From assembly GCF_053078305.1 (NCBI RefSeq), contig NZ_CP166879.1: a stretch of DNA of 64,000 nt, one strand, 5' to 3'. Below, in pieces: positions 1 through 3,000 of the stretch (position 1 is the first letter of the stretch; every line of letters starts with the position of its first letter). The position numbers were made by a program.

Positions 1-3000
1 TTACCGAAGATCGTCCAAGAGCATATACTTTTCAATATGTTAGACCTCATTTTGACCATAAAGAAATCGATTTTACACCGTTCTTTATACGTTCTTTTTT
101 GTCCCAAATATGCCCCAAACAACCACACTTTGCCCCAATAGCGCCCCAAAGATTTAAGGGGATTTAAGTATATATTTCAGATAATTAACGCAAGTTTACG
201 ATGTGAATTTACGTTAATTTTCTGGGTAGGGTATTTACCGTCATTCGTTCATCAATATTTCTGCATATTGACAAATACGCCTGAGCTATCGCGGGAGAAA
301 TGCAATGAAAGCAGCAAAAGGCGATGTTAATCACCCTGCTCATCTCTGTATTACCGTCATTGTGACGGCACTGATAACGAAGAAAGACCTCTGCAAGGGA
401 GGAATCCCTCGCCACCTCTGATGTGTCAGGTATCCTCACCCTCCCCAATCACATTAGCCCCGCACTTCCGTACGGGGCCATTTCTGTTAATCCACTCCCA
501 CTTTTTTGTTGTACTCGCGGTTAAACCGATCCACGGCAATTTTCATATCCCGCTCTACCGATTTCACCATCGCCGACTGTTGCGCCAGACTGAGAGTACT
601 GTCGGCGTAAATGGCATCACGCTGTTTACGCAAATCCTTCAGTCTCTTCCGGGTATCCTGCATAAGCCCGTTCATCGACAATTTTCCGTTGTTCTCGTCA
701 ATGAACGCCGTTCTTTCTGCACCGGTCAGACTCTTCAGCTCTGCGTGATACTGCGCAACCTCTGTCATCCGGTCGTACATCTTCTGCTGGTCAGCATACG
801 GCATCACCTCACCTGAAATTTTCCCCAGGAAGGGCGCCTGCTGCTCCGGTATATCAATACCGTTCAGCGATTTCACCGCCGCATCCGTGGTTTTGGAAAT
901 GAAGCGCCCTGTACCACCAGAGATATAGTCAATCCAGTATTTCAGTGATTCCGGCGTGACATCCACCGCGCCGGGACGGTACTGGCTGCCACCTGAGAAC
1001 GCATTCAGCCAGGATGCAAACGCCTTGTACGCTTCTGGCGTTGAACGTCTTCCCAGCTGGCTGTCAGGTTTTGGTGTACCAAACGGCATGTTCTCCTGGT
1101 AAATCTGCGCCCCCATGAAGTTTTCATTCATGGCAAGGTTCGCAAACGGACGCAGAATGGTCGGCGCTGCATTTTTCAGCAATGCCCCGGACACTGTTTC
1201 CGACGTCTCACTGCCAATCGGGCTGAATGCACCAAGCACACCACCAACAACATTACCGGCAGCACGGGACGCCGTCAGGTCACCCGCCGCCACACCTTCA
1301 GCGGTATGCCCGAGCAGGAAGAAAACGTTGTACCCGTAAGGCAGAGGAATACTCCAGTACTCTCCGGCCTTGCCCCCGAACACCGATTTCATAATGACGA
1401 GGTTACGCTCTTTCACATGAGACGGCACCTTGTCATACCAGTTAACCCCGTCATCATCCTCACCCGCCACGCTGCGGTTAAGCGAGCCAAGCAGATAACC
1501 TGCTCCCACAGCGGCAAGCGCGATTTTCTGCGGCACATTCAGATTCTTCCAGCGAAGGCGCTCCAGTAAAGGTCCCTCACCATTAAGATGTCCGAGCGTT
1601 CTCACCAGATTTGCCGTTCCCTGAATACTGGCGTTGGCGAACATGTACAGCGAGTTCATCAGCGCCCCCTGCTCACCACGACGGTTAAAGTTCACCGTCA
1701 TGTTTTTGGCAAGAGACGCCGCCTGCTGGCGTGACAAACCGGCATCACGGGCGTGTTTATAAGCTGACAGACGCAGTGCGTTTTCAACCGCGCCGTTGGC
1801 ATCCTCGACCAGGTTCAGGAACGAATTCCATGCACCGATACTCTGGCCTTTCCATCCCCCCTTCGCCAGTGAGACAAGGCGATCCATTTCCTTCTGCTGG
1901 CCTTCAAGATCACCCATGTTAAACCAGCCGGTTTTGCCTCCGTCCTCAACAAACTCTTTCCACACCTTCTGCCACTGTGTACCTTTGCCCGTGAGAGTTT
2001 TGCCTCGCAGACTGGCGTACACGGCTGACATTGCAGAACGGCTGTCTTTGACTACAGCCAGGGCGGATAAGTTATCCAGCCCTTTCAGTTTACCGTCGCT
2101 CCTTCCCTGCTCCGCCTTCAGGTTCATCACCGCCGTCTGCACGTCACGGATGAAGTTACTGACCAGGAATTCCGGGTTATACGACGTGTTCACCGTTGCC
2201 AGGAAGCGGTTAACTTTCCCCAGCGTACGAACAAAGGCATTGCTGGTTTCCGGTCCCATATTCTTCATCGCACGCATCAGGCGCGGATCATGGAGTTTGA
2301 TGTAGTACGTTTTGCCGTTCTTTTTGGTGGTGAAGTACCGGTCTGCCATCATTGCCATCGGTACAGGGCGTTCGACAACTTCGCGACGGGTTTCACCAGT
2401 TTCCTGGTCCTTGCGCTCTGCAATCGTCCGCATGGTATCCGGTCTGTCATCGGTGAATACCTGCCAGTAATCCTTGTCGGGATTATCCTGCACCAGTTTC
2501 AGGAAGGCGTTACCCACTTCGTTTTTGCGATGGCGGATCAGCGATTCGCTCAGGTCCTGTATCGCCTGAGTGGACGGAGACTGTGCCCGGGATGCACGCC
2601 CCATGGCCTGCCTGCTTTCACGTCCGCCGATGGTGAAGCCCTTACCTGTACGGGGCAGTGACACCACACCGTCAACATCCTGACCTTTCAGGGGAACGTA
2701 GTAACGGTAGGCGTTCTGCCAGGCATCCACCACACCGTTCTCTTCAAGTCCGGCCTCACGGATAAGCTCACGGCGACGGGCCAGCATATCGTCAATAATC
2801 CCTGCCAGACGGTCATACTGTGCCTGTTTGCCACTGTTACGTACACGCTGCATGATTTCCGCCGCTTCCGCGTTGGTCATCCCCGAACCGCCGTCCGGCA
2901 TTTTCGGGTTGATTTTCGCGATATGCGCGTTACGTTCCGGCGCGTGACGGGCGTAGAGGTACTCATCCAGATCGGCCTGCGCAATTTTGTAGTCCGCCAG

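Follow-up and report, generated by a model that had tools for sequence, protein, structure and literature searches.

Paired repeats on both arms of a Shiga toxin phage attachment site as candidate arm-type sites for a PF12167 integrase

The subject of this article is the phage attachment site (attP) of a prophage found in a 64,000-nucleotide stretch of DNA, contig NZ_CP166879.1 of NCBI RefSeq assembly GCF_053078305.1, which we call the window. The prophage is a short-tailed, Shiga toxin (Stx)-converting one of the 933W/P13374/Sp5 group (97-99% identity across the first 3 kb by megablast), and its insertion site is wrbA. Close to the left edge of the window there is a cluster of short boxes of the form G(C/T)CCCAA, which belongs to the int-distal (P) arm of attP, and a matching pair is found on the int-proximal (P') arm. 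Judging from the sequence and its comparison with relatives, we consider it very likely that the tyrosine integrase (Int) of the prophage itself binds these boxes, as arm-type sites, through its N-terminal domain. The evidence that we present concerns their position, statistics and conservation, the change of the motif in divergent phages, constraint at the DNA level, and the presence and fold of an arm domain in Int. Arm-type sites are a textbook feature, and their occurrence here is unsurprising because the integrase has an arm-binding domain.

Positions 95-160 of the window read ttttttGTCCCAAataTGCCCCAAacaaccacacttTGCCCCAAtagcGCCCCAAAgat. Four candidate P-arm sites can be recognized there, all on the + strand: GTCCCAA at 101..107 (site 1), GCCCCAA at 112..118 (site 2, 11 bp after site 1), GCCCCAA at 132..138 (site 3, the first member of a second pair) and GCCCCAA at 143..149 (site 4, found in the sequence and in the pair scan given below). 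From start to start the boxes are 11, 20 and 11 bp apart. Since the spacing is 11 bp within pairs and about 20 bp between them, all of the sites lie on one face of the helix. An earlier note on this DNA had described four phased copies of CCCCAA at this place; the spacing and the rough helical phasing hold, but the first copy is GTCCCAA, which leaves three copies and one variant. The change, from C to T at position 2, is not peculiar to the window: relatives often have GTCCCA, naturally, as their first P-arm site, while site 1 is GCCCCAA in STEC1585 and in phages of the 933W type. The neighbours of the repeats are the att core, a hok-like open reading frame (ORF) and the gene for a 2808-amino-acid structural or injected protein.

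The hexamer CCCCAA is rarer in the window than expected (18 copies versus 40 +/- 6). Exact GCCCCAA has eight copies on both strands of the window taken together, and the two att arms account for four. Throughout the whole 64 kb, G[CT]CCCA forms same-strand pairs at a spacing of 10-12 bp only with the start positions 101 and 112, 132 and 143, and 62605 and 62616. Such pairs have a mean of 0.12 and a maximum of 2 in 300 first-order Markov simulations, and a cluster of four boxes in 50 bp was produced by none of the 300. A telomere-like reading of the repeats was dropped: C4A2 repeats are contiguous hexamers, unlike these boxes.

To place the boxes with respect to the crossover one has to look past the edge of the window, as the earlier note had advised, and the prophage end was indeed found a short way to the left. 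In STEC1585, the closest relative (99.6% identical), the 5' part of wrbA ends ...catattgaaac and is followed by phage DNA. Base 6001 of the STEC1585 locus corresponds to window base 1, and TTGAAAC, at locus positions 5971-5977, is common to both junctions. By this comparison of junctions, the crossover copy of TTGAAAC lies outside the window, 24-30 bp to the left of base 1. It follows that the repeats stand at +127 to +175 from the core, on the int-distal (P) arm. The order within attP is the 3' end of int, the core, and then window base 1 onward; in the lysogen, the P arm stays at the junction that adjoins the 5' part of wrbA. The record of 933W gives the name attR to the junction carrying the repeats.

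The int-proximal junction with wrbA is inside the window. Comparison of the two junctions, together with the intact attP of phi191, places the 7-bp overlap TTGAAAC at 62686..62692 (no strand assigned); the sequence reads ...gacatgTTGAAACgatggcacgc..., and what comes after TTGAAAC is the remainder of wrbA. Intact attP is visible in phage deposits that are permuted differently, as in phi191, where it reads ...ccttagacatgTTGAAACcatgaagcattaaaaacacagaattaccgaag.... TTGAAAC is annotated as the attachment site in AP004402 and AP005153 and as the att core in 933W. No G(C/T)CCCA occurs inside the core region, agACATGTTGAAACCATGaag, and the sequence of the arm sites is hence unlike that of core-type sites.

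The pair on the P' arm is within the coding sequence (CDS) of int. The gene occupies 61330..62664 (+) and ends 22 bp short of the core. Near its end there are two candidate arm-type sites on the + strand, GCCCCAG at 62605..62611 (codons Ala-Pro) and, 11 bp after it, GCCCCAA at 62616..62622 (codons Val-Pro-Gln). Positions 62605-62622 read GCCCCAGacgtGCCCCAA, that is, GCCCCAG-N4-GCCCCAA, in the same orientation as the P-arm boxes. The pair stands at -84 to -67 from the core and encodes the last int codons, Ala-Pro-Asp-Val-Pro-Gln. It is present in 32 of the 33 distinct int 3' ends that 80 IMG/VR loci provide.

The C-terminal tails of Int are variable among 120 homologues, save for (A/V)P-x-(V/M)(P/S)(H/Q). 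A codon alignment of 14 int genes contains 57 columns with an invariant four-fold-degenerate amino acid. The third base is invariant in only three of these columns, and two of the three frozen bases belong to the prolines CCA and CCC within the two P' sites. Elsewhere in the 14 genes, codons of identical amino acids differ in 55-62% of cases. Where the protein changes from AP..MPH to VP..MSH, the one difference in the DNA is that GCCCCA becomes GTCCCA, a variant that P-arm sites tolerate as well, site 1 of the window being an example. Frozen synonymous bases, and minimal change of DNA under a change of protein, mean that selection acts on the DNA motif.

Int itself has, according to Pfam, an Arm-DNA-bind_2 domain at residues 15-78 and a catalytic domain at residues 210-403. 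Arm-DNA-bind_2 is PF12167, formerly DUF3596, and because of this domain we assign Int to the subgroup that Smyshlyaev et al. 2021 call IntBPP-1. No solved structure matching the N-terminal domain was found by sequence search. An AlphaFold model built on an alignment of 10 sequences has a mean predicted local distance difference test score (pLDDT) of 81; residues 11-60 score higher, the block means there being 90-93. The modelled N-terminal domain, about residues 9-85 of the ORF, consists of three strands followed by a long helix. An alignment points to His21 and Arg37, in the numbering of the 444-residue ORF, as candidates for residues that set its specificity. Fold comparison gave low scores, in keeping with the small size of the domain (about 50 residues), and the families matched represent the known arm-binding fold class. 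As to the start of the gene, the ORF beginning at GTG 61330 encodes 444 amino acids, while the closest database cluster representative (P0001) has 436, corresponding to ATG at 61354; the conserved N-terminal domain begins just past this ATG. The shorter form is probably the real Int protein. Directly upstream of int, at 61002..61301 (+), Pfam finds a putative excisionase (Xis) of the DUF1233 family, 35% identical to XisR of the Rac prophage.

The earlier note had proposed a search for the motif in related phages. The boxes recur, both in the int tails considered above and in most of the intact attPs that could be scanned. Fels-1 of Salmonella (Int 66% identical) has GCCCCAA, ACCCCAA, GCCCCAC and GCCCCAA at a spacing of 10/20/11 in its P arm and GCCCCAGgagtGCCCCAA at its int 3' end, the flanks being otherwise diverged. 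IdasGreatGrand, RothD, CobraSix, FSL SP-016 and PhiR42_1, whose Int proteins are 58-65% identical to that of the window, have intact attPs; in each, a GCCCCA-N5-GCCCCA pair lies within the int 3' end and is followed, 207-208 bp downstream, by one more pair. Yersinia phage 30.14 (Int 52%) and Rac of K-12 (Int 44%) follow the same plan at the two prophage ends. Even Bordetella BPP-1, with an Int only 27% identical, has GCCCCAAattcGTCCCAA in int and GTCCCAAgatttGTCCCAA 184 bp downstream.

We made an unbiased scan of attPs from phages with PF12167 integrases for two tandem pairs of any one 7-mer, with at most one mismatch, 120-300 bp apart. The two-pair layout was found in nine of 11 intact attPs, from E. 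coli phages to BPP-1, and for each attP at most one of 200 shuffles was positive. Among the seven enterobacterial attPs scanned, six have a distance from pair to pair of 207-211 bp and PHB10 has one of 197 bp; in JBD44 and BPP-1 it is 182-184 bp. In divergent members the motif has changed on both arms: it is GCCCCT(A) in PHB10 and (A/C)TGGTAC in JBD44 of Pseudomonas. An alignment of six attPs with different cores leaves as sizeable invariant blocks only the two P' sites, the P pair and one box of another sequence, to which we return below. The distance from P' to this box is 117-119 bp and from the box to the P pair 90-93 bp, in total about 210 bp or roughly 20 helical turns. Arm sites are thus conserved with the integrase lineage although the core and attB sequences differ. 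Approximately 25 further P arms retrieved from IMG/VR by means of the conserved box all have a pair 75-78 bp past it, some with a third site, and sites 1 and 2 of the window are placed likewise, 77 bp past the box. (Of the 108 distinct matches to the box pattern in IMG/VR, about 80 are chance occurrences in GC-rich contigs, and only the approximately 25 in an enterobacterial P-arm-like context were used.)

The number of boxes varies among wrbA-type Stx phages. There are four in the window, VT2-Sakai and the Stx1 phage, six in 933W and Stx2 phage I, and eight in Min27; the additional ones arose as a unit of 31 bp, or three helical turns, was duplicated in tandem. The polymorphic arrays are at 101-149 in the window, 570-660 in the locus of Stx2 phage I (L004) and 120-235 in that of Min27 (L007). 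The second P pair is also present in Fels-1, has the form GCCCCT in PHB10 and Rac, and is multiplied in 933W and Min27. The minimal layout of the family is two P' and two P sites; the lineage of the window has two and four, as have Fels-1, PHB10 and Rac. That the block does duplicate, giving four, six or eight boxes, and that the records of Sato et al. label it merely as 'arrangement g/gg', could be taken to mean that local tandem duplication or low-complexity DNA at the end of a prophage has left these repeats behind, without any function. We find this hardly credible. Motif, pair spacing and distance from the core are kept down to 27% integrase identity amid unrelated flanks, there are copies embedded in int with frozen synonymous sites, and the clustering is far above chance.

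The earlier note had left three options for the repeats: iterons, arm-type recombinase sites or regulator binding sites. The second is the one that gains support, from the location on an attP arm, the pair on the other arm, the arm domain of Int and a layout kept across different cores. Iterons or operators would serve a replication or transcription regulator, for example one of the hok-like gene or of transcription coming from wrbA, and the boxes do look the part, being phased direct repeats in an intergenic position upstream of a hok/gef-like ORF on the same strand. We regard this as very improbable because no replication gene or origin is nearby and because the motif tracks int and att, not hok or the giant gene: boxes are kept in RothD, CobraSix, BPP-1 and Rac, which are without hok and the giant gene and have an integrase of the same family. 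In addition, the second cluster is within int and not at a promoter. A simple consensus scan of positions 1-520 for promoters and terminators found nothing, and so lends the promoter or operator reading no support.

More serious is the possibility that the boxes bind not Int but the excisionase, a recombination directionality factor, in the manner of the direct repeats X1, X1.5 and X2 of lambda. Direct repeats about one helical turn apart, as on the P arm, are the arrangement of lambda Xis sites. Furthermore, every relative tested by Pfam has a DUF1233 Xis along with Int, so that gene content cannot separate the two proteins. A pair of the same motif on the other arm would be atypical for an excisionase, the sites of which normally keep to one arm. 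It is Int that has an arm-binding domain and, apart from a few isolated two-copy direct repeats, no other motif occurs in tandem pairs on both arms to provide it with sites.

The Rac prophage permits this possibility to be weighed further, as binding of its XisR to DNA from the int-distal junction has been reported (PMC4632033). In that study AttR, a fragment of 294 bp, was shifted by XisR, and AttM, of 291 bp, was not (Liu et al. 2015, PMC4632033). We mapped the primers of the supplement onto K-12, where, in the coordinates of our Rac locus (L226), AttR is 25790-26083 and AttM is 25669-25959. The GCCCC(T/A) boxes of Rac, at 25816-25851, are in both fragments; all of the clear repeats are contained in the unshifted AttM, with flanks of more than 100 bp. 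Since both fragments have the boxes and only AttR was shifted, XisR alone does not bind them. By the same mapping, some or all of the XisR site must be in the 124 core-proximal bp that AttR does not share with AttM. For the phage of the window, with an Xis 35% identical to XisR, this evidence is indirect. Taking both sides together, we leave the excisionase only a slim chance of being what the boxes bind, and Int remains by far the better candidate.

How would Int use these sites? By analogy with lambda, each Int protomer would bridge an arm site, bound by its N-terminal domain, and a core site flanking TTGAAAC, bound by its core-binding and catalytic domains. DNA bends, probably made by IHF, would fold the arms back onto the core. 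The two P' sites together with two or more P sites could supply the four protomers of the recombining Int tetramer. Assembly of this tetramer would lead to integration into wrbA, and the same assembly with the DUF1233 excisionase would lead to excision. Phasing of the sites on one helical face should favour cooperative binding of Int. Xis probably acts elsewhere, its candidate targets being the conserved box or core-proximal DNA. The binding itself, the bridging, and the roles of the sites in integration as opposed to excision are what we infer from this analogy.

Several points weigh against assigning the boxes to Int, and they should be stated together. Our literature search turned up no binding or recombination data for the Int of the window or for any PF12167 integrase. 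In the Rac electrophoretic mobility shift assay the protein was Xis alone, and a homologue at that (35% identical to the Xis of the window). A search with the IHF consensus gave only matches with one mismatch and no enrichment over chance. At the stringency chosen, no paired repeats flank the int stop in JBD68 and CF60a, two Pseudomonas phages with PF12167 integrases; either their attP is located elsewhere in the genome or their arm sites are more degenerate. Finally, co-variation of the motif with the N-terminal domain is imperfect, as BPP-1 keeps GYCCCAA with 35% identity in this domain, whereas the motif of JBD44 differs at 39%.

Among the closest known systems is attP of lambda, with arm-type sites bound by the N-terminal domain of its Int. 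There, too, accessory sites are in both arms (P1 and P2, P'1 to P'3), about 70-175 bp from a 7-bp overlap; neighbouring sites are approximately one helical turn apart and have a sequence unlike that of the core sites; the P' arm adjoins int at its 3' end, and upstream there is a small xis gene. The differences are that the Int of the window belongs to the IntBPP-1/PF12167 subfamily and that G(C/T)CCCA(A) takes the place of the lambda arm consensus. Furthermore, the sites in the window are predicted ones, two P' and four P (two pairs), in a single orientation, and the P' sites are within the int CDS.

Among the examples of IntBPP-1 in Smyshlyaev et al. 2021 (PMC8138268) are 'putative integrases' of the Stx2a phage, Gifsy-2 and BPP-1, and arm sites are not described there. 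The Int of the window shares the DUF3596/PF12167 domain with this subgroup, and the attP of BPP-1 has the same GYCCCAA pairs. The DNA side, that is, the arm sites, is what the present analysis adds to this classification of proteins. A literature search on 933W Int, PF12167/DUF3596, Gifsy and Rac found no published arm-site map.

In Rac, where IntR is 44% identical to the Int of the window, the P' pair is GCCCCC-N5-GCCCCA and is situated just past the intR stop (L226, about 2970-2990), outside the CDS, unlike that of the window. The int-distal arm on the ttcC side (25804-25851, equal to NC_000913.3 1434803-1434850) has GCCCCT, GCCCCT, GCCCCA and a degenerate GCCACC, the three clear sites being 11 and 19 bp apart. 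Rac differs from the window also in its motif, GCCCC(T/A), and in its attB, which is ttcA. Binding of XisR was tested on the 294-bp junction fragment, with no mapping of sites (PMC4632033). The feature 'arrangement g / gg, region III' in AP005153 and AP004402 (Sato et al.) covers part of the block that we describe here, as a repeat region with no function given. The 39-bp 'g' feature holds three of the four boxes of the Stx1 phage, and the 70-bp 'gg' feature five of the six boxes of Stx2 phage I.

We now turn to other elements of attP. The conserved box, AGATCGTCCAAGAGC, at 9..23 (+), follows the core and precedes the P-arm sites; measured from the crossover, it occupies +35 to +49. Its positions A-ATCG-CCA-GAGC are invariant in the six-attP alignment; PhiR42_1, the Yersinia phage and Rac lack the 15-bp box. 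Xis is a candidate for its binding partner. A candidate bend site is the IHF-like sequence TTTCAATATGTTA at 39..51 (+), with one mismatch to WATCARNNNNTTR; the same sequence is found at 3530-3542 of phi191. Relatives have near-consensus IHF-like sites at conserved positions of the alignment, within the stretch that separates the P' pair from the core, and just past the box. Directly after the fourth arm site, at 151-168, there is a direct repeat, GATTTAAG-GG-GATTTAAG, with a spacing of 10 bp. The equivalent in the 933W type is CATTTAAG-GG-GATTTAAC, and the direct repeat was not seen in more distant relatives.

The inverted repeat ttaacg...cgttaa that the earlier note had seen next to the boxes is real. 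It lies at 185-217 and is the core of a hairpin of 22 pairs, which spans 176-226 (+) and is followed by UUUUCU. The folding energy is -18.6 kcal/mol on the + strand (z = -5) and -14.2 kcal/mol on the - strand. In the 933W type, a compensatory change from A-T to G-C and the repair of a C.A mismatch result in a perfect stem of 23 pairs with -27.7 kcal/mol. In attP the hairpin is positioned downstream of int. It could be the int terminator, a target of RNase III like sib of lambda, or an insulator against read-through from wrbA. For the repeats, the hairpin and hok/sok, an Rfam search of positions 1-700 gave no match; its only two hits were chance ones below threshold.

The hok/gef-like ORF, at 305-421 (+), is small (38 amino acids) and is assigned to the Hok/Gef family in RefSeq phage records; the NCBI Prokaryotic Genome Annotation Pipeline labels it in STEC1585 as a frameshifted, incomplete pseudogene. 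At the opposite junction, the phage provides a new ATG, which overlaps the int stop (ATGA), together with 10 codons fused in frame to the 3' part of wrbA. The resulting ORF, at 62661-63239 (+), encodes 192 amino acids, with the native N-terminus, MAKVLVLYYSMYGHIETM..., replaced. The lysogen may express a WrbA protein with an altered N-terminus.

Stx phages of the 933W/Sp5/P13374 type bear the toxin genes of enterohaemorrhagic E. coli and of the O104:H4 outbreak strain, and the efficiency of their integration, excision and re-lysogenisation depends on attP. In the public annotation considered here, attP amounts to the 7-bp core (933W and the Sato records) plus, in the Sato records, the unexplained 'arrangement g/gg' repeat region. 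On the sequence evidence, we propose to define it as a region of roughly 270 bp with two plus four candidate Int arm sites, the conserved box and candidate bend sites. This architecture is common across the IntBPP-1/PF12167 subfamily, with K-12 Rac included, which makes for an easy experimental model. It also provides a usable rule for delimiting prophage ends and for designing minimal attP cassettes in the PF12167 family, and the copy number of the sites raises the question of its effect on the stability of Stx prophages.

A bolder suggestion, one that we put forward tentatively and think more likely to fail than to succeed, is that G(C/T)CCCA is a near-universal code of the PF12167 arm domain, from Stx phages and Rac to BPP-1, written in the last codons of int, and that duplications of 31 bp, giving four, six or eight sites, tune the frequency of integration and excision. 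If this were true, the copy number of the box would be a natural means of tuning the mobility and stability of Shiga toxin prophages.

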